58,284 nucleotides of DNA from Candidatus Enterousia sp. (GTDB lineage: Bacteria > Pseudomonadota > Alphaproteobacteria > Rs-D84): positions 1 to 58,284 of the forward strand of contig JAZSDC010000031.1 in assembly GCA_045530935.1 (NCBI GenBank), in the 5' to 3' direction. The notes under the pieces are model-generated. The model was not told where the DNA came from and made no database searches. It saw nothing but the letters and a program-made list of their open reading frames with translations. Each line of letters starts with the position of its first letter. The stretch's first letter is position 1. Of this stretch, positions 1,413-58,153 are shown piece by piece. Both the position numbers and the translations under genes were made by a program.

Positions 1413-2144
1413 TTAAAACAATATATTAATCCGACCACCAATCTGAACATCATCCGATTCAAATTCAAAATCCATGTGTCCAACATATTGTGTACGACCA
1501 TATTGGCGTACAATTTTTGCATGCAACCATTCTTGATCGAAATCAACATCTTCAATTTTATGTGTTGCCTTGCGAATTGTTGCACCTATGCCAAAGCGCC
1601 AATCTGGGGCAGTACGAAAGTAAGCTTCGGGCATAAAGTCCAAGAACGCAACCCCACGCGTATCATCAAACACCCATGTTGACTTAATCGTCGCAGCCAA
1701 CGTCATACCCGCCCATTGGCGACCAAAGCGCAAGCCCGCATAGTACGTTGAATCCGCATAATCTGGTGTACGCACACGCGAACCACCACCGAACTTGAAC
1801 CCAAACAAAACATCCGATATTACATGCGCATCATTATCATCGGCGCCCCCCATACGGTATATTGCACCCAAATCAATTGCAGAGAAACCGTCTTCATTAC
1901 CATTAAAATCATGCTGATAATGCACATTTGCGCCAACACTTAACCGATTATTCATCCCATAAGAAATCGATTGCCCTGCGCGTAAAATATGGTCCCAGTA
2001 CGTCATCGAAGTTTGCGACAAAACACCTTCGATTCCCAACATAAACAATGGATCAGATGTATCCTGTCCTATATCATTCGCACGAACAAATGATGGCATA
2101 AATATAAAACAAGACAATAAAATAACAGATAAAAACTTACGCAC
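1413..2144 (-). CDS. Putative outer-membrane beta-barrel protein
   Basis: Probable GTG start at 2144 after a GGGGA SD-like motif; signal peptide; alternating hydrophobic/aromatic strands; C-terminal BAM-like signature IGGRINILF. Confidence 0.7.
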   Translation of the reverse strand: MRKFLSVILLSCFIFMPSFVRANDIGQDTSDPLFMLGIEGVLSQTSMTYWDHILRAGQSISYGMNNRLSVGANVHYQHDFNGNEDGFSAIDLGAIYRMGGADDNDAHVISDVLFGFKFGGGSRVRTPDYADSTYYAGLRFGRQWAGMTLAATIKSTWVFDDTRGVAFLDFMPEAYFRTAPDWRFGIGATIRKATHKIEDVDFDQEWLHAKIVRQYGRTQYVGHMDFEFESDDVQIGGRINILF

Positions 2145-2229
2145 AGCGGTTCCCCTATCTCTCCACCCAGTCAAACAACTTTACACGCCCCAATAAATTT
2201 CAGGGGCGTGATTTTACATTAACATTTCC

Positions 2230-3564
2230 CTAGAACTGGAACATAACCTGCAGACCAATTGTTGTTTCCGCATAGTTATCTAAATCAACCGTTCCTAGCT
2301 TGGTCAAAGATGTCATAAACTTGCCATCCTGCAACTGGGGTACATACGATCCCCCACCCAGGTCAACAGGCTGTTCCATCCAATAAAAATCCAGTGTTTT
2401 ACCATCTGCACTGTCATAAAATACAGTTCTTGCATACAGGTTCAATGCAAAGTTATCATTTGGTTGCCAACCAATTGCGCCCTTGATTGATGCAGAATTA
2501 TGCCAATCATAATTACCAAATATACCTTCGACATTCAGTGTCCAATCTTCATTCAGCACACTAAATACACCCAAACCACCTTCGATGTACATGGCGCTGT
2601 CATCACCGACCTGATATGGGATATACATCATTGCATCACCGGTATAATTAACCCCATCAATTTCATACTGATACTGTCCCTTGACACCATTTCCATATGA
2701 ATTTGCTTCTAAATCCAGATACCACCCACGCACCAAACCATATATTGTTGATGTTGAAACTTTGTACCCTGCCTTTAATTCCATCAAGAAATTATTAGAA
2801 ACATCTTTTTGGTGCTGATAATATGCCGACGCCATACCAATCCAATCTTCGGTATCCAAGAAACGCCACTGTCCCCCAACACCAAACAAATTTATACCAT
2901 CGTCTTCATATTTATCATCTGCTGAATTATCATCCCATTCAAATTTAGACGTATCAGAATCAAATTCCAACATTCCCATCAACGCAAAAGTATCTGTAAT
3001 ACCATAACTAAAATCCTCTTTCACAGAAAAGCGTTTAAAATCCCAATTTCCGCCATGTCCATTCCATGCCAAATCGAATGCCGGCACATCCAACGATGGA
3101 TTCCACACAGGAACAGTCTGATTAATTTTAAAATCATATCCCGCCATAGTATACGAAAAATCAGTTACAGAACCAAACACACCCCCCAACGGCTGATAAA
3201 ATGGATGTGCGATAAAATATTTACGCGTTAATTTATCAACAACCTTTTCCGAGCGTGTTGTACGTTTTGTTGTCTTCATTGCACGCGCAGACGAAGAATT
3301 TGCCCCTTCGTATTGTTTATACAATGCGCTGCGACTTGCAGGCTGGGCATAATATAAATCTGCTGCATCTTTGGTTTCATATGTCTTGGTTGTTGTACGC
3401 GTTTTATATTTTTGATAATTAACTGTTTCACGTGTACGTGTGGCAGGCGCCCCTGTTAAATCAGCACTGGACGCGGCACGTGCGCCAAAATTTGTCGCAG
3501 CATTGGCATCCAAAACCGCCAACACAGATAAAACGCCAACGACACCAAATAATGTTTTCTTCAT
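2230..3564 (-). CDS. Putative outer-membrane beta-barrel protein with basic/Thr-rich N-terminal extension
   Basis: AGGAG SD; signal peptide MKKTLFGVVGVLSVLAVLDANA; Tyr/Trp/Gly-rich beta strands; ends IGLQVMFQF. Confidence 0.75.
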   Translation of the reverse strand: MKKTLFGVVGVLSVLAVLDANAATNFGARAASSADLTGAPATRTRETVNYQKYKTRTTTKTYETKDAADLYYAQPASRSALYKQYEGANSSSARAMKTTKRTTRSEKVVDKLTRKYFIAHPFYQPLGGVFGSVTDFSYTMAGYDFKINQTVPVWNPSLDVPAFDLAWNGHGGNWDFKRFSVKEDFSYGITDTFALMGMLEFDSDTSKFEWDDNSADDKYEDDGINLFGVGGQWRFLDTEDWIGMASAYYQHQKDVSNNFLMELKAGYKVSTSTIYGLVRGWYLDLEANSYGNGVKGQYQYEIDGVNYTGDAMMYIPYQVGDDSAMYIEGGLGVFSVLNEDWTLNVEGIFGNYDWHNSASIKGAIGWQPNDNFALNLYARTVFYDSADGKTLDFYWMEQPVDLGGGSYVPQLQDGKFMTSLTKLGTVDLDNYAETTIGLQVMFQF

Positions 3565-3645
3565 GATACATCTCCTTTTTACAAAAAATTATACCATAAA
3601 AAAATATTTCAGCAAAGAAAAAACCGCCAAAGATGACGGTTTATC

Positions 3646-4446
3646 TTAATTTGACGCACCTGGCCACCCATAGGGTCTTGAATTTTGTTGCCGGGTCATC
3701 TCTTGATTGTACAACAATATCTGCATTTTTACTTGTTCTGCGCAACTATTAATCTTCGCCTTTGCTTTTTCTTTCTTACAATATAATTCTGTACATGCGT
3801 TTAAAGGTGCACCATTCTTACCCTTTACTTCGCATGTTGGATTGCTGCCATCGGTTTTGTTAATAACCAAAAGCCCCATTTGTTGTGCAGTTTCTATATC
3901 TTTCATCAACTGCTTTCGCGCATCTGTTGTTTTACCAGAATCAACCGCCATTTCAATCAATCTAAGATTATACTGCAGACATTCAATCACAGACGCATAA
4001 TCCCCAGATTCCCTGACACAATTTTTCGCATTATCCAAAACAATATACTTATCACCACTGCCTGGCGTGCCTGTATCAGAATCACCACCTGTATCTTTTT
4101 TATCTTCACCAGACATAAAATCCTTTGAATATATTGCTTTTTCCAACTGCGTTCTTAATCGACGCACCATTGATTCCATTTCCTGATATTGTTTGTACAT
4201 TTGTTGCGTAATAACCGTCGTCTTCATACGTACAATTTCTTGCATTTGTTGTTTTTTTTCGTTTTCTGGATTTTGTTCTTCACCGATATTATATACATGC
4301 GTTGAACACAGTGCTAATTCTGGGATAACCGCATCATTCAATTCAGAATCACAATCATAATTCGCCGCACTTACACCACCGACCAACCAAAGATGTACGA
4401 TTCCAGAAATAACAAATATCAGAAAAATCTTCCTTAAAACACCCAT
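3646..4446 (-). CDS. Exported Cys-containing helical/coiled-coil hypothetical protein
   Basis: 266-aa ORF with signal peptide, several Cys and a Gln/Met-rich helix; co-oriented with its neighbours. Confidence 0.75.
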   Translation of the reverse strand: MGVLRKIFLIFVISGIVHLWLVGGVSAANYDCDSELNDAVIPELALCSTHVYNIGEEQNPENEKKQQMQEIVRMKTTVITQQMYKQYQEMESMVRRLRTQLEKAIYSKDFMSGEDKKDTGGDSDTGTPGSGDKYIVLDNAKNCVRESGDYASVIECLQYNLRLIEMAVDSGKTTDARKQLMKDIETAQQMGLLVINKTDGSNPTCEVKGKNGAPLNACTELYCKKEKAKAKINSCAEQVKMQILLYNQEMTRQQNSRPYGWPGASN

Positions 4447-4457
4447 TCTTAAGATCC

Positions 4458-6290
4458 TTATTTATCTACACATTCAAAATTACACCCAGAAACTTCCAAC
4501 ATTTGTGTCGGACTATTCTGACATTGTACAACAGTTTGATAAATATCTTTTGTCAACAAACAGCTATCATAAAACATACAACCACCAGTTTTAACCTCAC
4601 AACGAGCGGTATTTTTGTTCCAATCCATCGTACAATCTGTTCCACCAAGATTTCCTTTGTAAGTGGTACATTCAGCTTCATTCGAAATCCCCTTGGCATA
4701 AGGCAGAAACCCATACCCAGACGTAGCAGCAATATACGACGCAACCACTGGGGCATTACTATACATAGAATCCAAATTCTTTCGTGATGTACAAACCCTG
4801 GCAGGCAACTTTTTAGTTTGTATCGCATTTAACAATGTTAAATATTGATCTTCTGTTTTTACCGCACAATATTTTGTACCAGATTTAACAGCATTTTCCC
4901 CGCCATAAAAAGACGTACCAACCGCATAATCTGGGGCATCCTGGGCCAAGATACGTTCCAAAACATCCAAACCTGCCGCACGTCCACCATTTCCACTGAC
5001 ACGCCCTAACATCGGAATTGATTCTAATGCCGATGTCGCACACCCCAAACGCACCAAACGACCATTTGTGGCATCAGCTTCTTCATTTTCTGCAATCCAT
5101 GCACTACTTACCGCGGCACCTTCATCTCCGGCAGTAATAAATTCCGTCAATGTACAGCGCACATCATCATGCGCAGGTATCATCATACCAACGGTACAAT
5201 TTTGTCCACCTTTGGCATAGCCTTTTTTTACGGAACGTTCATTCTGACAATTCGTATGCGAATAATACGCAGGCTTATGTCCCGTTGCAGCACCACTGCC
5301 CACGCACATAAACTTTCCCCACCTGTTGCACGAACCATTCAACATCATTATAACATCTGAAACATCCGCACCAACCGCCAATGCCATTTCCAACGCATTG
5401 TACATTGCCGTGGCCGCTTGGTCATATGGACGAATAAAATCACGCGCTTTTTGTTTAAATGCTTTTACGCGTTTTGGCCCCGCGCAATTTTCACCACGTT
5501 CATCACATCCTGCATAACGAAACGCAGTCTGCATTGCTGCATATAATGATTTTAATGCGTCTTCTGCACTTTCAACCTCTGACAAAATCTGTCCCGATAT
5601 TTGTGCACGAAACTTCATATCTTCGATATAATCTTGGTTATCTGTACCCAGCAACGCTTCGTTATTACCCTCTGCACTTGACGCACCCCCCGCAACAGAA
5701 TTTGTTTCATTCGAAGCAGTCAACAATTCCTTTTGCGCATCCAATGCAGCACGAATTTCACGCATTTGATTATCGTTTTGTTCTTGTATCTGGTTTTGCA
5801 AATTGTTTATTTGATTTTGCATTTGTGTAATCTGTTGATTACTGTTGGCCAGTTTTGCTTCTGTCTGCTGGGCAGCAGCTGCAGCATCAGCCCTTTGCTG
5901 TTCTACAATTTTCGCATTTATATCAGACACAATTTGCGCTGCGATAAAATCAATCAGTTCATCCCCATGTTGCTTGCAAGTTTTATTACTGTTCACACAC
6001 CCAACAACAATCGGTCTTGCAATTTCCACTGTTGTACACCCTGAACATCGTGGCTGGGCGCAGCGCATTATCAATGAATTACAATTACCAAAATCCGCCT
6101 TGGGCTTTTCCCCCACAGGCCCTGTTGCCTGTGTTCTGGAATTCATCATATTATTCCAATTATTATTATTTGTTACCCCGACATTCCCATTCCATGCCGT
6201 CAAATTACTGCCTGCAGTTGTCGCAACATTCGCAGTCGCCACGCCAGGCAACAAACAAAACAACAATAAAAATCGTGTAAACAATGTCAT
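4458..6290 (-). CDS. Exported Cys-rich protein with Gln/Ala coiled coil
   Basis: 610-aa ORF with signal peptide, many Cys and a QQITQMQNQINNLQNQIQEQ coiled coil. Confidence 0.8.
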   Translation of the reverse strand: MTLFTRFLLLFCLLPGVATANVATTAGSNLTAWNGNVGVTNNNNWNNMMNSRTQATGPVGEKPKADFGNCNSLIMRCAQPRCSGCTTVEIARPIVVGCVNSNKTCKQHGDELIDFIAAQIVSDINAKIVEQQRADAAAAAQQTEAKLANSNQQITQMQNQINNLQNQIQEQNDNQMREIRAALDAQKELLTASNETNSVAGGASSAEGNNEALLGTDNQDYIEDMKFRAQISGQILSEVESAEDALKSLYAAMQTAFRYAGCDERGENCAGPKRVKAFKQKARDFIRPYDQAATAMYNALEMALAVGADVSDVIMMLNGSCNRWGKFMCVGSGAATGHKPAYYSHTNCQNERSVKKGYAKGGQNCTVGMMIPAHDDVRCTLTEFITAGDEGAAVSSAWIAENEEADATNGRLVRLGCATSALESIPMLGRVSGNGGRAAGLDVLERILAQDAPDYAVGTSFYGGENAVKSGTKYCAVKTEDQYLTLLNAIQTKKLPARVCTSRKNLDSMYSNAPVVASYIAATSGYGFLPYAKGISNEAECTTYKGNLGGTDCTMDWNKNTARCEVKTGGCMFYDSCLLTKDIYQTVVQCQNSPTQMLEVSGCNFECVDK

Positions 6291-8825: not shown

Positions 8826-11094
8826 AAAGGATATGACGTTTATTATTAACATCTGGCGCAGAAACAATCCCATCTTGTTCCATACGTTCCATAAACCCAG
8901 CCGCCTTGTTATATCCAATCTGCAAGCGCCGCTGAATATATGAAATTGTTGGTTTTTTATCACGAATAACACATTCTTTGGCGCGTTCATACAAATCAGC
9001 TTCTTTATCCCCACTGCCGCCACTTGGAATTGCCCCCGGCAAACCTGCAAGATCTCCCGCACCTTCGGAATCAGTAACGCCATCAGCATATTCTGGTTCA
9101 CCCTGACTGCGCAAGAAGTTACCAATCTGGGTTAATTCTTTATCATCAATAAACGCCCCGTGTATACGAACAGGCACGCGTCCTGCCTCGCTAAACAGCA
9201 TATCACCCATTGCCAGCAACTGTTCTGCACCACCTTCACCCAGACACGTTACACTGTCGATACGACTGCGCGCCTGGAATGAAATACGCGTTGGGAAGTT
9301 CGCCTTGATAACACCTGTAATTGTTGTTGCATCTGGTCGCTGTGTCGCCATAACCAAGTGAATACCTGCTGCACGCGCTTTCTGTGCGATACGCTGAACA
9401 CACGCTTCCACATCTTTACGGGCCAAGCTCATCAAATCCGCTACCTCGTCAATAATAATGACCATATACGGCATATCAGACAAATTAATTTCCTGGGTTT
9501 CGAATAACAATTCACCTGTTTCTGGATCTGTACCAACGGCAACCTGTTTGGTCAACTTTTCCCCAGCCGCACGTTTTTGTGCCGCAATTTCATTATAACT
9601 TTCAATATTGCGCGCATTCAGAAGCTGTAATTGTTTATAGCGCTCTTCCATTTCACGCACCGCCCACTTCAGCGCATTTACCGCAGGTTCTGGTTCCAAT
9701 TTAACAATTGGCGTAATCAAATGTGGAATATCGTCCCAGAATCCAAAATCAACACCCTTTGGGTCAATAATAATCAACTTACATTTATCTGGGGTGAAAT
9801 GATAAACGATTGAGGTAATAATAGATTGAACAAACACAGACTTACCAGATCCTGTACGTCCTGCAACCAACATATGTGGCATTTTTGCCAAATCGAAATA
9901 CATTGGATTTCCACCGATATCAACCCCCAACGCCAATGGTATTTTATACTTGGTATTTACAAACAATTCATCTTCCATCAAACCACGGTATCGCACTGTT
10001 TGCCGCTTGGCATTAACCATTTCAACGCCAATCAATTGCGTACATGGGATATGTGCAATACGAATACTTTCTGTTGCCATTGCGCGCGTCATATCTGTTA
10101 CAGTTTTGCTAACATCTGCCATACGCGTACCATCATCTGGCATGAATTCATATAACGTTACAATTGGTCCTGGTTTAATTCCGACAACCTTGCCACGCAC
10201 GCCATATTGTGCAAACTTTACCTCCATACTACGTGCATTTTGTTTCAGTTCAGGGGTTACTACATATTTACTAAAATTAGAACGTTCCAATAATTTTGTA
10301 TCTGGCAAACGAAACACAGACCCCGCCTTAACTTTCTTTGGCACAGATGCCACCGCAGGCGTTGACGCACTCGCCACCTTTGCAGACTTACGCCCCAACA
10401 AACCGCGCCTATTTTTTTTCTCGCCCTGTTGTTTTTCAGCTTTTTCCGCACCTTCTGCCAGCTGTTCTTCACTCTGCCTGTAATCTGTGTCCACTGCACA
10501 CACAGGCTGAACCAAATGGAACGCAGTTCCCAACCAACGCAACCAACGCCATGCGATTCTTGCCACTAAACGCAAATGAGAAATTTTCACATGCAACAAT
10601 GCGCCCGCCATCCACACAAACCCCAGCAAAGCCAACACCCCAACAAACACCCCAATCTTTCCTGCAATCAATTCCAAATCGTGCCCTGCAATAACACCGA
10701 ACACGCCACCATATGTCATTGCTGGGAAAACAGCACCGAATCCGATTGCCCCCAAACACACAGTAATAAATACACGTAAAAAATTATATTCTGGCGTTTC
10801 ACTTATTTCTAATCCCACCATCTTAATCAATCCCCAACGCGCAAAACATAACACTAAAAACAATCCCGGAATAACACCAACCGCATAACGAATTGCACCA
10901 ACACACACACCCATTACAGATTGATTACCAAGTGTACTGGACACCGCAAACCCATCCAAATAAGGGTTATAAAACAACAACGCAAATGTTGCCCAAACGC
11001 CCAATAAAAAAACCACAGCGCCCAAAACACGAGACGCTAAATTCTTTAACATTCCAGAAACACTATCTGGTAAAAATTTAGATTTTCCTGCCAT
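8824..11094 (-). CDS. ftsK: DNA translocase FtsK
   Basis: N-terminal TM segments; PHMLVAGRTGSGKS Walker A; IIDEVADLM; LVMATQRP; gamma domain SYIQRRLQIGYNKA. Confidence 0.97.
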   Translation of the reverse strand: MAGKSKFLPDSVSGMLKNLASRVLGAVVFLLGVWATFALLFYNPYLDGFAVSSTLGNQSVMGVCVGAIRYAVGVIPGLFLVLCFARWGLIKMVGLEISETPEYNFLRVFITVCLGAIGFGAVFPAMTYGGVFGVIAGHDLELIAGKIGVFVGVLALLGFVWMAGALLHVKISHLRLVARIAWRWLRWLGTAFHLVQPVCAVDTDYRQSEEQLAEGAEKAEKQQGEKKNRRGLLGRKSAKVASASTPAVASVPKKVKAGSVFRLPDTKLLERSNFSKYVVTPELKQNARSMEVKFAQYGVRGKVVGIKPGPIVTLYEFMPDDGTRMADVSKTVTDMTRAMATESIRIAHIPCTQLIGVEMVNAKRQTVRYRGLMEDELFVNTKYKIPLALGVDIGGNPMYFDLAKMPHMLVAGRTGSGKSVFVQSIITSIVYHFTPDKCKLIIIDPKGVDFGFWDDIPHLITPIVKLEPEPAVNALKWAVREMEERYKQLQLLNARNIESYNEIAAQKRAAGEKLTKQVAVGTDPETGELLFETQEINLSDMPYMVIIIDEVADLMSLARKDVEACVQRIAQKARAAGIHLVMATQRPDATTITGVIKANFPTRISFQARSRIDSVTCLGEGGAEQLLAMGDMLFSEAGRVPVRIHGAFIDDKELTQIGNFLRSQGEPEYADGVTDSEGAGDLAGLPGAIPSGGSGDKEADLYERAKECVIRDKKPTISYIQRRLQIGYNKAAGFMERMEQDGIVSAPDVNNKRHIL

Positions 11095-53304: not shown

Positions 53305-54633
53305 TTAATCATTTAAAAAATCACGTAATGCATCACCAATCAATTCATCTGCATCCGCCATATCACCCGCGCCATCAACCACCGAAACCACACGTGGCGA
53401 CATAAATACCACCAATTCTGCATATGGCGAAATTAATGTTTCAGGCGTTGTAACAAATGAATGTGTTGGGATTCCGACAATCACATAATTATCCCCAACC
53501 GTAGACGGGATTTCAAAAGAACTAAGTTCCCCCTGCCCTGTACGCAAAACTATCTTTGCATCAATTTTTTTACGTCCTGCAAAATCACCATATTTACCAG
53601 TTGCGCCAACAATCAAATCAGTTTCCAGTCTTTCTTCGCGTCCACATTGCCCAATATCAAATCTAGACTGCCACCCATCTGGGATTGCAAATGTACCCTG
53701 TGAAACCAGCACAACATTCGCCTGTTGCGCCAAGAATTCTTGTAGTGTTTTTGTGTTAATTTCTGGTCCAACAACCAACGCACGACCAACCACCCCCGGG
53801 ATAGACATTTTCACATTTCTTTCCCCAAAAGCCGGCAACAAATTCATCCAGACAATCGGATTATCCGTACGCGGATAAACACGATACACATCAATATCCC
53901 ACGCAATCATATATTTTTTCGAAGATATATCTGCAATTATACGTGCGACTTCACGTTCTGTCTGATAATTACCTTCGAATACAACTGTTTTATCCGCCCA
54001 ATCAACCAACAAATTACGCATATCCACACCATGCATTGCATCCAACAGCGCCATAATAATAGTCTGATTTTGCGGCATTTTTATCAACCACTTTGAACGA
54101 TGTTTTAAATGAATCTCTCCGGTGTGTTCATCATAATAATAGTACGCCCGTCCAATTTTTGTCATCAAATCAACTGCATCAACCAGGTTTCCTGCCGCAA
54201 TTGTTCCAGATATTTTTTCGTACAACGGCTCATCTTCAACAACATCTATATCTAACCCTTCCAACAATTTATCTAGCGCCTGTTTTACAGTCAAGTTTTT
54301 AAATTCATAATCCGAAACTGGCAAACTAGGCAATTTATCCCCTGTTACCAACTGAACCATTTCTATTTTTTCCGCTGGCACCACCGAAACGACACTTTGA
54401 TTATCCCAATTTACCTTGCAACGCATTGGCAATTCTATTGAAAATCGCCGCGCCGTATCAGTTGTCAAAGCTGCCTTCTTTGGAAAAATAGGCACAGAAC
54501 GCGAATCAATAACCAATTCATCAACAACGGTCACATTATCGAATGCGGGTTGCTCTTTTACTTTATCCTTTACACACCCCAGCAACACTGCGACCATCCC
54601 CATTCCTGCAAAAAACTTTTTCACAATCTTCAT
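53305..54633 (-). CDS. Outer-membrane lipoprotein resembling a divergent PilN/BfpB/TcpC-type secretin
   Basis: AAGGAG SD; lipobox VLLGC; STN-like segment FKNLTVKQALDKLL; N3-like segment ending IAWDIDVYRV; C-terminal ELVVFMSPRVV (compare secretin ELxIxxTPxII). Confidence 0.55.
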   Translation of the reverse strand: MKIVKKFFAGMGMVAVLLGCVKDKVKEQPAFDNVTVVDELVIDSRSVPIFPKKAALTTDTARRFSIELPMRCKVNWDNQSVVSVVPAEKIEMVQLVTGDKLPSLPVSDYEFKNLTVKQALDKLLEGLDIDVVEDEPLYEKISGTIAAGNLVDAVDLMTKIGRAYYYYDEHTGEIHLKHRSKWLIKMPQNQTIIMALLDAMHGVDMRNLLVDWADKTVVFEGNYQTEREVARIIADISSKKYMIAWDIDVYRVYPRTDNPIVWMNLLPAFGERNVKMSIPGVVGRALVVGPEINTKTLQEFLAQQANVVLVSQGTFAIPDGWQSRFDIGQCGREERLETDLIVGATGKYGDFAGRKKIDAKIVLRTGQGELSSFEIPSTVGDNYVIVGIPTHSFVTTPETLISPYAELVVFMSPRVVSVVDGAGDMADADELIGDALRDFLND

Positions 54634-55060: not shown

Positions 55061-55447
55061 ATGAGAATAAAAATTTTACCCATTTTTTCAGTATTACTTA
55101 TAACGTCATGTGCATCTGTAAACCGCGGCAGCATTGATGATGCCACAATTTTGAACTGGGAAAACGAAGCGGTCACCACCGAACAATTCGTTCGCGATCA
55201 CAAGTCATGTTTAGGGATAACTCGTCCATCATATGAGCCACGTTCCAGAATATCGAAATTATTATCACCGAACCAGGCTGGCATTATGCCTGATTGGGAT
55301 GGATTATGGGTAACATTTCAATCCAACGAATACCAAGATGTTGGTCAACGTAACTTACTGTCTGTTCCCCGCAACACGACATCACGCACAATTGGCGCAT
55401 ATCGTCGTTGCATGTTTCGTCGCGGATATTTATTACGCGCAATGTAA
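55061..55447 (+). CDS. Hypothetical lipoprotein
   Basis: Lipobox ITSC; DHKSC and YRRCMFRRGY; promoter TTGCCC-17-TATAAT ending 6 nt before the ATG. Confidence 0.75.
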   Translation: MRIKILPIFSVLLITSCASVNRGSIDDATILNWENEAVTTEQFVRDHKSCLGITRPSYEPRSRISKLLSPNQAGIMPDWDGLWVTFQSNEYQDVGQRNLLSVPRNTTSRTIGAYRRCMFRRGYLLRAM

Positions 55448-55510: not shown

Positions 55511-56191
55511 ATGAAGCGTTCGATATGGTTTTGGTTATGTTTTTCAATTGCCATTATTTTTGGCATTTATTTTTCGACGCGAATGATAATGACACATACA
55601 GGTTCTGGTCCGTTATCATATGTACACAACATATCCATTCGCACGGACACCCCTGGGCAAGATTTATCTTCGATTGCCGCTGTGGCATCACTGCCCCCCG
55701 GAACGCGCGCCCATTCTGTTGACCTGTCCCTTTTGTTACAGCGCGTATCAAACGTACCCGGTGTCAAAGAATGCGCAATCCGTCGCATGCCTAATGGCAG
55801 CATCAGCATTTACACAAAAATGCATCATGCTGTTGCAATGTGGACAGACGGTGAAAATTATTATCCATTATCTGCGGACGGCACTGTTGTAAACACCCCA
55901 ACAAACGCGCGCAGCATTGCGCACATTGTATTTCGTGGCACACTGCCTAATAACATATCCGACATCACACGCGCAGCGCATAACTTAATTGGTTTTATTG
56001 ATTACCTTGAATGGATTGAACAGCGTCGATGGAACATACACACCACAGGTGGCATAACGATATTATTACCAGAAGAAAACCCGACGGTTGCGATAAATAC
56101 ATTGGTAAATTTAAACACAAACCACAATATTTTAGGCAAAGAACTTACTGTCATAGACATGCGTGACAGTTCACGAATTTTAGTTAAATAA
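55511..56191 (+). CDS. ftsQ: Cell division protein FtsQ/DivIB
   Basis: One TM segment; POTRA-like DLSLLLQRVSNVPGVKECAIRRMPNGSISI; RRWNI; IDMRD; promoter TTGCTA-17-TATAAT ending 7 nt before ATG 55511. Confidence 0.85.
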   Translation: MKRSIWFWLCFSIAIIFGIYFSTRMIMTHTGSGPLSYVHNISIRTDTPGQDLSSIAAVASLPPGTRAHSVDLSLLLQRVSNVPGVKECAIRRMPNGSISIYTKMHHAVAMWTDGENYYPLSADGTVVNTPTNARSIAHIVFRGTLPNNISDITRAAHNLIGFIDYLEWIEQRRWNIHTTGGITILLPEENPTVAINTLVNLNTNHNILGKELTVIDMRDSSRILVK

Positions 56192-56194
56192 CAC

Positions 56195-57991
56195 ATGAAC
56201 CTGTTTGATTCATCTTTTCTGTGTCTGGACATTGGCACGTATGGTGTACGTGGCATTGCGCACCGCATACGCAACGCCCAAATTGACAGTTCTGCATTTT
56301 TCACAATTGACAGTTCTGACACCATATTTGCGATGAAATCTGTAATTGACGAACTGGAAAGACAGATTGGCGCACATTTTGATTCTGCATATATAACAGG
56401 GAACTTTGGTCAATCATCATTTACCATGACCGCAAAAAGCACGACATGGACCGGGGAACACAAAATCAGCACAACCGACATACACAACCAGATTTCACAA
56501 ATCACCCCATCTGATGAAAATTTTTCATCCGGCCACTATTTTCCGATGCATATTGTTCCGTTACGATATGACACCCCTACTGCACGCAATTTACTGTCCC
56601 CTGTTGGGCACATTGACCGCCAGTTGATATCCGCATTTGGTGCAATATTTTATTCACATCATGGCATTGATTGCATCAACGAAATTTTACGTGGCGCCCA
56701 TATCCAAGCCACTGCAATGTACGATCCACATTTTTTATTGAATGCCATTTATCGCCAGACCAATCAAACAACAATGTTCATTGACTTTGGCGCAGAATTT
56801 ACATCTGCATCGATTTGGACAAATCGCGGTCCTGTTTGGCACACAAAGATAAAACTTGGTGGCACCGACATAACCAACGCAATATCATCGACACTGAATC
56901 TGGACCCAGAATCTGCGGATCGGATAAAACGTACTGTTGCATCGATGGCACCGCGCGAAATGGATCGCTTTACCCCTGCGGACAGCGCATATGATTTTTC
57001 TCGTGGTGACGTTAATGACATAATATTACCGATATTGGTTGACATCATCGGACAAATCAAGGACCAATGTTTACAATCATTCACGAAACACCACCCGACA
57101 AAGATAATATTAACAGGTGGTGGCGCCGAAACAGATGGTCTGCGTGATTTCATAGAAAACGCATTTGCGGTTATAACCGAAACCATGCCAATTGGTGCAA
57201 CTGTTCGCGCCCTGTCTGATTATATATGGCAATCCGAAGAACCCCATCGCAAGAAATATCTTTCCAATCGCGAACGTTGGTCAAATCGGACAAAGTGGCT
57301 TCGTCGTATATTCAACCGCAAGCCTAAAAAAACAACAAAATTTATCCCAATATTACCCAGTACCCTGTGCTTTGACATGCGCGCCCCCAACACATACAGT
57401 CTGTTTAAATCGGGCGGCATATCAATGATACACGTTGACATAATGGATGGATTTTACGTTGACAGAATCGAAGGCAGCATTTCTGAAATCAAGACAATTC
57501 GCGCGAACACAAACGCACACCTGCACGTTCATTTAATGACCGAAAGTCCATCTGTCTGGGCCAGTGACGCAATATCCGCAGGTGCAGACACAATTATTTT
57601 ATCAACCAACACATCTGGTTTACGCAACGCAATCCGCATAATCAAAAACGCAGGCCGTCGCGTTGGAATTGCATTAAATCCTGAATCATCTGTATCACTG
57701 TTAAAATCGGTATTGCGCGATATTGATGAAGTCATGATAATGTCTGTTTCACCTGGGGCAGCAGGTCAAAGCTTTGAACCATCTGCGTTACACAAGATAT
57801 CTGTATTGGCAGCCACACGAAAAAAATATGGACTTCGTTTTTTAATATCTGTTGACGGTGGCATAAACGACAAAACCGCCCCACTGTGTTGGCAGGCAGG
57901 TGCAGATTTACTGGTATCTGGTTCGTACCTGGCACGATCTCCTGATTTTCCATTGGCTGTTCACAGTTTGCTAAAAAAAGACACACCATAA
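56195..57991 (+). CDS. Fusion of an FtsA-like actin-fold protein with ribulose-phosphate 3-epimerase (Rpe)
   Basis: N-terminal part: LDIGTYGVR, IDFGAEFT, LGGTDITNAIS..L...ADRIK, LTGGGA and an amphipathic RWSNRTKWLRRIF helix. C-terminal part from about 57338: ILPS, HVDIMDG, HVHLM, GIALNPES, MSVSPG..GQSF, VDGGI, GADLLVSGS. One uninterrupted frame. Confidence 0.88.
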   Translation: MNLFDSSFLCLDIGTYGVRGIAHRIRNAQIDSSAFFTIDSSDTIFAMKSVIDELERQIGAHFDSAYITGNFGQSSFTMTAKSTTWTGEHKISTTDIHNQISQITPSDENFSSGHYFPMHIVPLRYDTPTARNLLSPVGHIDRQLISAFGAIFYSHHGIDCINEILRGAHIQATAMYDPHFLLNAIYRQTNQTTMFIDFGAEFTSASIWTNRGPVWHTKIKLGGTDITNAISSTLNLDPESADRIKRTVASMAPREMDRFTPADSAYDFSRGDVNDIILPILVDIIGQIKDQCLQSFTKHHPTKIILTGGGAETDGLRDFIENAFAVITETMPIGATVRALSDYIWQSEEPHRKKYLSNRERWSNRTKWLRRIFNRKPKKTTKFIPILPSTLCFDMRAPNTYSLFKSGGISMIHVDIMDGFYVDRIEGSISEIKTIRANTNAHLHVHLMTESPSVWASDAISAGADTIILSTNTSGLRNAIRIIKNAGRRVGIALNPESSVSLLKSVLRDIDEVMIMSVSPGAAGQSFEPSALHKISVLAATRKKYGLRFLISVDGGINDKTAPLCWQAGADLLVSGSYLARSPDFPLAVHSLLKKDTP

Positions 57992-58008
57992 AAACATGGT
58001 GTGTTTTT
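57974..58008. terminator. Terminator after the ftsA::rpe fusion
   Basis: acacaccat-aaaaac-atggtgtgt followed by tttt. Confidence 0.75.
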
Positions 58009-58153
58009 GTAAACAAATTCGCCTGTTTAGTTTTTTTTAGGGATGTGGGCTTCCGGTTATAAAAGTCTATGACTTTTAAACAGCGACATGTTCACACAAA
58101 CATATTTACAAATACACAAAATATTATCAATCGGTATGATTTCCCAAACATTT

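Follow-up and report, generated by a model that had tools for sequence, protein, structure and literature searches.

An in-frame fusion of FtsA and ribulose-phosphate 3-epimerase is conserved in a family of gut Alphaproteobacteria in which FtsZ is not detected

FtsA is the membrane anchor of FtsZ, and in the DNA analysed here it is joined to an enzyme of central metabolism. The stretch, which we call the window, comprises 58,284 nucleotides (nt) of contig JAZSDC010000031.1 from a Candidatus Enterousia genome (GenBank assembly GCA_045530935.1). A single open reading frame (ORF) of 598 amino acids (aa) on its forward strand (56195-57991), starting 3 nt past an ftsQ-type stop codon, encodes an FtsA-like half followed by a ribulose-phosphate 3-epimerase (Rpe). 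Judged from the conservation of its sequence, the fusion is ancient and selectively maintained, and is characteristic of one family of uncultured gut Alphaproteobacteria. An earlier reading made from the letters alone (the sequence-only reading) had proposed an in-frame FtsA-Rpe fusion in a single 598-aa ORF 3 nt after ftsQ, and the analysis confirms it as real and conserved. That reading let the feature begin at 55511, which is the start of ftsQ; the fusion itself begins at 56195.

The protein consists of an FtsA fold (residues 1-347), a helix (349-373), a polybasic linker (374-384) and a complete Rpe barrel (385-598). An AlphaFold2 (AF2) model of the 598-aa protein has a mean predicted local distance difference test score (pLDDT) of 90.3 and a predicted template-modelling score (pTM) of 0.61, with residues 349-373 in a helix and 375-381 disordered. 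Coordinates of these parts and of the neighbouring features are collected in Table 1.

The frame is intact at the junction, where the sequence-only reading had asked for reads across a run of seven A residues. The run lies at 57326-57332 as described, and is bridged by independently assembled Logan contigs from four runs belonging to four studies, with 0 gaps and no indels. All four of these contigs carry A57335G, which replaces T381 of the linker by A. No RNA run appeared among the sequencing runs listed as holding the sequence. Within the genus, a full-length match is present in 23 of the 24 other genomes, the exception being a 70%-complete assembly in 110 contigs. The 24 sequences fetched (the window's own and the 23 others) are all single stop-to-stop ORFs of 591-612 aa, which stay open despite different linker codons. 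None of the 24 has a Met at the junction, in agreement with what had been read from the window.

The spread of the domain architecture, which the sequence-only reading had recommended for checking, extends through the family. In a sample of 121 family genomes from 18 genera, the fusion is matched in 120 genomes and in 18/18 genera, down to about 30% identity. In all but four of the family genomes with a match, that match is single and lies in one open frame of 555-634 aa. Of the exceptions, G071, G082 and G053 show two matches within one frame, and G050 (61% complete) has the halves on two contigs. G077, the one family genome in which no match was seen, is 72% complete. The best 120 hits of a protein search are all 584-598 aa long and have both Pfam domains, and the public records, where they carry a name, call the protein only "ribulose-phosphate 3-epimerase". 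Among representatives clustered at 50% identity, about 20 full-length fusion clusters are followed by fragments and then by ordinary Rpe of 210-230 aa. The carriers are Candidatus Enterousia and uncultured Alphaproteobacteria of animal guts, with reduced genomes of 0.5-1.1 Mb. Enterousia has been assigned to the order and family Rs-D84 with genomes of <1 Mb, and is described as having the non-oxidative branch of the pentose-phosphate pathway and lacking transaldolase (PMC12306168, 2025 mSphere; accessible part). FtsZ, FtsA and the term "cell division" are absent from the main text of that paper, as far as its accessible part goes.

The C-terminal half is readily assigned. It matches the Pfam family Ribul_P_3_epim (PF00834) over residues 402-579 with E 1.2e-42, and passes the cut-off of the NCBIfam rpe subfamily model NF004076 (174.2 vs 165); it falls below that of the equivalog model TIGR01163 (153.7 vs 212.6). 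A PDB search with a profile built from the alignment of the 24 genus orthologs finds the Rpe structure 2fli with E 1.3e-49, and Foldseek superposes the barrel on 2fli with a template-modelling score (TM) of 0.92, a root-mean-square deviation of 1.3 Å and 33% identity. Residue alignment pairs H413, D415, H446 and D554 with H34, D36, H67 and D176 of 2fli; we take these four to be the metal ligands, two of them presumably forming the catalytic Asp pair. H413, D415, D418, H446, M448 and D554 are among the invariant columns of the Rpe half in the 24 orthologs, and of the 12 most divergent family orthologs 11 retain the metal ligands. The claim of a full barrel with His/Asp/His/Asp ligands is thus upheld, as is that of a diverged substrate loop: HFVPN has become FYVDR and, in addition, PGFGGQ has become PGAAGQ, both in the fusion family only. 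Compared with the Rpe of Streptococcus pyogenes (2fli) and potato (1rpx), the fused protein shares the full (beta/alpha)8 barrel, the metal ligands, the Met cushions and a score above the NF004076 cut-off. It differs from them in lacking a start codon of its own, in having FtsA joined N-terminally, in carrying FYVDR for FVPN and PGAAGQ for PGFGGQ, and in missing the TIGR01163 cut-off.

The fused barrel is the sole Rpe match in the window's genome, where transketolase and RpiB are also present. Four other genomes of the genus carry, beside the fusion, an additional Rpe-like gene that stands alone, encodes ~217-281 aa and shares 28-32% identity with the fused barrel (G119:C2:100131-100790, G119:C12:591-1208, G141:C3:77894-78463, G136:C4:61521-62075 and G065:C2:30099-30623); one of the two copies in G119 contains stops.

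The N-terminal half is more diverged, and its assignment draws on several methods. Residues 195-325 match Pfam FtsA (PF14450) with 34.6 bits, above the cut-off of 31.8. The profile search of the PDB places FtsA 7q6f (E 1.4e-16, query residues 6-340) ahead of PilM (7.6e-10) and MreB (4.1e-9), and the top Foldseek matches are FtsA chains (3wt0, E 4.1e-24; 7q6f, TM 0.74). The profile and Foldseek matches bear out the FtsA-like actin fold of the sequence-only reading. The same reading had called the ATP motifs diverged; the site is less degenerate than implied, with six residues (D12, G14, D197, G199, G308 and G309, covering the phosphate-1 Asp, the phosphate-2 DxG and the adenosine GG) invariant across the 24 genus orthologs. 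About 40 loop residues are deleted relative to the FtsA of sister families. A search with TIGR01174 finds no stand-alone ftsA in the window's genome, its other matches being MreB and a 634-aa ORF that is presumably DnaK; neither of the separate genes, ftsA or rpe, that had been proposed as a check was found elsewhere in the genome.

In several respects this half resembles canonical FtsA (7q6f of Vibrio maritimus; 4a2a and 1e4f of Thermotoga maritima): the actin-like fold with the FtsA-type extra subdomain, the place directly after ftsQ, the nucleotide-site Asp and Gly residues kept in the genus, and a tail helix that aligns to the membrane-targeting helix of sister FtsA. Unlike the canonical protein, the fusion has its helix internal, with a polybasic linker and then an enzyme behind it; it has lost the loop residues just mentioned, scores below the curated cut-off for ftsA, and occurs in a genome without a detected FtsZ, whose C-terminal peptide canonical FtsA binds through subdomain 2B.

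The junction combines that helix with the linker. The end of helix 349-373 (TKWLRRIF) aligns to the C-terminal membrane-targeting helix of stand-alone FtsA from the sister families. Of the internal amphipathic FtsA-type helix claimed in the sequence-only reading, the helix itself is predicted and aligns to FtsA tails; its amphipathicity is weak, as detailed below. The basic linker that had also been noted is a constant feature, 9-12 residues long with a net charge of +4 to +8 in 24/24 genus orthologs.

The sister families of the same order show where the fusion came from. In them ftsA (409-426 aa, matching SHS2_FTSA and ending in a helix of the ...KVKKWIDDNF type) and rpe (195-235 aa) are separate genes, in the order ftsQ-ftsA-rpe. 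G025 has a 17-nt overlap of the two genes and G032 an ATGA-type overlap of 1 nt; in G029 they abut, and family f3 has an ABC-transporter gene between them. Gene order thus indicates that the fusion arose from an ancestral ftsQ-ftsA-rpe adjacency, and since ftsA and rpe abut or overlap in sister families, loss of the boundary between the ftsA stop and the rpe start would suffice to produce it. The ftsZ genes of the sister-family genomes are located elsewhere, away from ftsA-rpe. A terminator does follow the fusion gene, as had been read from the sequence (a hairpin of 10 pairs at 57981-58004, then a T run), but the statement that it stands there "instead of ftsZ" was misleading, because FtsZ-bearing sister families keep ftsZ elsewhere and already have rpe after ftsA.

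Selection on the fused protein was assessed from identity, from substitution rates and from alignment scores. Pairs of orthologs within the genus are on average 54% identical over the FtsA half, 38% over the tail (341-385) and 71% over the Rpe half, and 106 columns, those of both active sites among them, are invariant. Ratios of nonsynonymous to synonymous substitution (dN/dS) were calculated by the Nei-Gojobori method on 9 pairs, in several of which the synonymous sites were saturated. In the two pairs with the least saturation they are 0.031 and 0.125 over the FtsA half, 0.158 and 0.248 over the tail, and 0.054 and 0.090 over the Rpe half, so that both halves lie at about 0.03-0.15. These ratios indicate that both halves are under purifying selection and that neither is decaying. 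The FtsA half scores 35-87 bits against five sister proteins, whereas sister families score 108-189 bits among themselves; the Rpe half shows no comparable drop (87-134 bits against sisters, 94-155 among sisters). The drop in the FtsA half without one in the Rpe half indicates that the FtsA half diverged strongly on the stem of the family, at the time when FtsZ disappeared, and then settled under constraint.

The sequence-only reading had envisaged a sugar-phosphate enzyme or sensor tethered to the anchor of the Z ring. This part did not hold: no FtsZ, and hence no recognisable Z ring, was found in the window's genome or in any of the 121 family genomes. The window's genome (1.01 Mb in 43 contigs, 93.8% complete) gives no match to TIGR00065, and none to the Tubulin Pfam family PF00091 even at E <=1. 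A hidden Markov model built from five FtsZ sequences of the same order, run with filters off against all six-frame ORFs of at least 40 aa, has a best E of 4. When the order FtsZ profile was compared by hhalign with all 536 ORFs of at least 250 aa, the best probability was 5.8%, as against 52% for the control, a degenerate FtsZ-like protein of another family in the order. With the degenerate FtsZ-like protein of genome G027 as a bridge query, phmmer found no match at E <=10 among own-genome ORFs of at least 150 aa. The count of FtsZ-bearing genomes is 0/25 for the genus and 0/121 for the family, including 0/103 high-quality genomes and two one-contig assemblies; in the sister families it is 15/16, 13 of them above the curated cut-off. 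No simple scar of an ftsZ deletion was seen in the window's genome: homologs of the genes flanking ftsZ in family f3 lie on its contig C18, with other, opposite-strand genes between them. The G027 protein (family f4; contig C18, ORF 2022-3245, minus strand) is itself of note as a 408-aa FtsZ-like protein that has no GGGTGSG-type glycine loop and scores 31 bits with TIGR00065; the fusion query matches neither an FtsA nor an Rpe in G027.

Much of the remaining division and wall-synthesis machinery is retained. The window's genome keeps FtsQ, FtsK (window 8827-11094), MreB and MreC-PBP2-RodA, as well as an aPBP-MraY-SEDS-MurG block (aPBP, class A penicillin-binding protein; SEDS, shape, elongation, division and sporulation) in which the SEDS protein lies between mraY and murG. 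Overall it has two SEDS proteins and four proteins with a transpeptidase domain (penicillin-binding proteins, PBPs). Matches to DivIC/FtsB are weak and ambiguous. The FtsL Pfam model gives a blank, which is uninformative, since among the controls that model matches only E. coli. Near the aPBP-mraY-SEDS-murG block is encoded a multi-pass membrane protein of 430 aa that matches no Pfam family (own-genome contig C8, 17343-18632, minus strand).

The family can be compared with bacteria known to lack FtsZ, for which Chlamydiae, Planctomycetes and some Mollicutes are the only groups named in the accessible part of one source (PMC5147048). It resembles the FtsZ-less Chlamydia, Planctomycetes and Wolbachia supergroup J in that FtsZ is undetected and MreB, RodA/PBP2, FtsK, FtsQ and an FtsW-type SEDS protein are kept. 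In Chlamydia and Wolbachia supergroup J, ftsA is scored 0% wherever ftsZ is 0% (Table 2 of PMC10591338, as far as accessible), whereas the family studied here keeps FtsA, fused and under purifying selection. It further differs from the FtsZ-less lineages in keeping ZapA and in being alphaproteobacterial and gut-associated. A 2025 preprint on alphaproteobacterial FtsZ paralogs makes no mention, in its accessible part, of FtsZ-less Alphaproteobacteria. Our literature search, in a corpus short of most subscription journals, found no description of missing FtsZ in Rs-D84 or in alphaproteobacterial metagenome-assembled genomes. Nor, in the same corpus, did it find any description of an FtsA-Rpe fusion, so that the statement of the sequence-only reading that none was known holds within the literature searched.

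We consider it fairly probable that the protein is bifunctional and a product of gene adjacency: the cell's only Rpe joined to a trimmed but constrained, membrane-near FtsA that serves the late divisome of a lineage in which no FtsZ can be recognised. In this model the boundary between abutting or overlapping ftsA and rpe was lost from an ancestral ftsQ-ftsA-rpe operon, which would have left a single polypeptide. Its C-terminal barrel would act as the only Rpe of the cell, serving the non-oxidative pentose-phosphate branch together with transketolase and RpiB. The N-terminal half would be a trimmed FtsA with its nucleotide site kept in the genus, probably held near the membrane by the helix and the polybasic linker, and probably serving those late-divisome proteins that remain (FtsQ, FtsK, the FtsW-type SEDS protein and PBPs) as their hub on the cytoplasmic side. 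The site of division may be set by MreB, a role proposed for it in Chlamydia, or by other factors. The fusion would fix both activities at 1:1 and put Rpe at the membrane, and regulatory coupling need not be assumed.

Several observations weigh against this model. On the FtsA side, the ftsA equivalog model TIGR01174 gives a score of 58, below its cut-off of 175.85, and Pfam does not detect the 1C insert (SHS2_FTSA) in the FtsA half. The phosphate-binding Asp residues of this half are replaced in five of the 12 most divergent family orthologs, namely three sequences of genus g14 (3/3), G049 and G055 (D197E, G14N), and are intact in seven; ATP binding is therefore not universal. The helix of the window protein is weakly amphipathic, with a mean hydrophobic moment of 0.47 and z ~1 relative to shuffled sequences (sister FtsA tails, 0.41-0.70 and z 0.8-3.1), and it is deleted in four orthologs of genus g23, in which the basic stretch is kept. 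On the Rpe side, G049 has lost three of the four metal ligands with its 591-aa frame intact, and has no other Rpe match in a 98%-complete genome. As to FtsZ, the evidence for its absence comes from searching the sequences of metagenome-assembled genomes, and the genomes of the family are all kin, so that the fusion and the loss of FtsZ count as one co-occurrence, and as one loss rather than 121. Finally, 24/25 genus genomes, none of them with a detected FtsZ, keep a ZapA homolog above the Pfam cut-off, and its retention means that an unrecognisable FtsZ substitute may exist.

The alternative closest to the sequence-only reading is that of functional coupling, in which the Rpe barrel acts on the FtsA half as a pentose-phosphate sensor or regulator and gates division or septal wall synthesis by sugar-phosphate supply. 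The known parallels are UgtP and OpgH, which are likewise sugar-metabolism enzymes physically associated with the division machinery, but which are separate polypeptides that act on FtsZ; here the link is covalent and FtsZ is not found. A covalent link kept over 18 genera, a linker that is always short and basic and so holds the barrel beside the FtsA tail, and the family-specific changes to FYVDR and PGAAGQ would all fit such a role. The adjacency of the genes in sister families, however, is a sufficient neutral origin for the link, and the Rpe half evolves as an ordinary housekeeping enzyme. The AF2 model, with its pTM of 0.61 and disordered linker, predicts no fixed interface although the domains themselves are confident. 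We regard coupling as unlikely.

A second alternative, which we also rate as unlikely, is structural repurposing after the loss of FtsZ: the FtsA fold and the Rpe barrel would together build a membrane lattice, with ATP turnover and epimerase chemistry non-essential. Rpe barrels are oligomeric in solved structures. One case for this view is the G049 ortholog (contig C1), in which D12, D197, H413, D415 and D554 are all replaced and the frame is nevertheless kept, without a second Rpe match, a hint that the protein may do more than catalyse. The whole of genus g14 in our sample also lacks the phosphate-site Asp of FtsA, and the loss of FtsA together with FtsZ in other FtsZ-less bacteria (PMC10591338, accessible part) means that its retention here needs a reason. 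Against repurposing stand the catalytic residues, invariant in either half across all 24 orthologs of the genus, the Rpe ligands retained in nearly all of the divergent ones, and the presence of partner enzymes of the pentose-phosphate pathway; G049 is moreover a single genome and may be losing the gene. A more far-reaching form of this idea, which we think distinctly doubtful, is that the whole family divides without a tubulin-type FtsZ, with the fusion protein as the membrane scaffold of a Z-less divisome. The Rpe barrel would then be an oligomerisation or cross-linking module, a role suggested by its being kept even without catalytic residues in G049, and the scaffold would work with ZapA and the protein encoded next to it, possibly a "headless FtsZ" that docks on FtsA.

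That neighbour is also the candidate in a third alternative, very unlikely in our estimate, in which FtsZ is not truly absent but persists as a very divergent or "headless" derivative, still anchored by the FtsA half. FtsZ is the only known partner of ZapA, whose retention in the genus speaks for the idea. The candidate, a 360-aa protein divergent from zapA (Table 1), adjoins zapA in 24/24 genus genomes that have both and is present in 117/121 family genomes. It has a near-invariant N-terminus of 48 residues, an acidic and variable middle with three conserved islands, and a C-terminus of about 55 highly conserved residues ending ...DEDFSIPGFF..KK, which resembles the sister FtsZ tail LEIPAIFKK. 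In hhalign its C-terminal region aligns to that of the degenerate FtsZ-like G027 protein with 42% identity over 38 columns, at E 0.0016 and a probability of 15.8%. Against sister FtsZ the hhalign probability is 1.1%, which is not significant. Profiles of its ends find no FtsZ in 16 sister-family genomes: the C-terminal profile matches nothing at E <=10, and the N-terminal one has four weak matches away from ftsZ. AF2 predicts the protein as mostly disordered (mean pLDDT 49), and it lacks a tubulin GTPase domain, so that it would at best be a tail and not a ring-former. A regular-expression search for an FtsZ-type C-terminal peptide among own-genome ORFs gave one irrelevant match and missed the IPGFF protein, which was noticed by eye. 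An atlas look-up returned only hypothetical proteins (0.80-0.81), and in two sister genomes the neighbours of zapA are different (a small coiled-coil gene and an rph-like gene). Complex prediction for residues 1-348 of the FtsA half with residues 300-360 of the candidate scored 0.00 against a mark of 0.32, which speaks neither for nor against binding. As a "headless FtsZ" the protein is a lead only, homology not being established. The last alternative, an artefact or decaying pseudogene in which a frameshift at the A7 run falsely joins two genes, has only the position of the homopolymer at the junction in its favour and can be dismissed, given the indel-free contigs from four studies, the 24/24 open orthologs, the matches in 120/121 family genomes, the lack of a start codon for a separate rpe, and dN/dS far below 1.

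Table 1. Features of the fusion locus and of the zapA locus. Positions refer to the window unless another contig is named.
Feature	Position	Strand	Evidence
ftsQ-type gene, 226 aa from ATG at 55511	55511..56191	+	PF03799 FtsQ_DivIB_C, E 3.7e-9; same ftsQ-ftsA order in sister families
FtsA-like actin-fold half, residues 1-347, including 1C-type insert	56195..57235	+	PF14450, 34.6 bits; 7q6f profile, E 1.4e-16; Foldseek TM 0.74
Long helix, residues 349-373, ending TKWLRRIF	57239..57313	+	AF2 helix; aligned to sister FtsA tails
Polybasic disordered linker (fusion junction), residues 374-384, NRKPKKTTKFI, with A7 run 57326-57332 inside	57314..57346	+	pLDDT <50 at 375-381
Complete ribulose-phosphate 3-epimerase barrel, residues 385-598	57347..57988	+	PF00834, E 1.2e-42; NF004076; 2fli TM 0.92
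Intrinsic-terminator-like hairpin of 10 pairs, overlapping the fusion stop codon, T run after	57981..58010 (stem 57981-58004)	+	Palindromic stem listed on minus strand 58004-57981; plus-strand T run read directly
ZapA homolog, 92 aa	Own genome C6:12680-12955 (outside window)	-	PF05164, 39 bits
zapA-neighbour protein, 360 aa, divergent from zapA	Own genome C6:13248-14327 (outside window)	+	No Pfam match

A few further features of the window may be recorded. Promoter-like hexamers (TTGACA and TACAGT, spaced by 17 nt) occur at 57372-57400, inside the ORF where the Rpe barrel begins. An internal promoter serving a separate rpe start was considered there and rejected, because the hexamers are codons of the conserved FDM...TYS and a transcript from this position would lack the first strand of the barrel; the hexamers are probably incidental. 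Upstream of ftsQ are two ORFs with no Pfam match and lipoprotein-like signal starts (53305-54633, minus strand, and 55061-55447, plus strand; ...LLGC and ...ITSC). Farther away, at 1416-6290 on the minus strand, four successive ORFs (253, 444, 266 and 610 aa) match no Pfam family at E <=1e-5.

The family as a whole thus keeps FtsA under purifying selection, welded to an enzyme of central metabolism, with FtsZ undetected. For annotation, the record name "ribulose-phosphate 3-epimerase" hides the division half of the protein, and pipelines that score FtsZ or FtsA as universal markers will misjudge genomes of this family. The lineage may represent a further, independent loss of FtsZ, now in Proteobacteria, and it offers a natural experiment on those functions of FtsA that are independent of FtsZ: divisome recruitment, activation of FtsW/FtsI and self-assembly.

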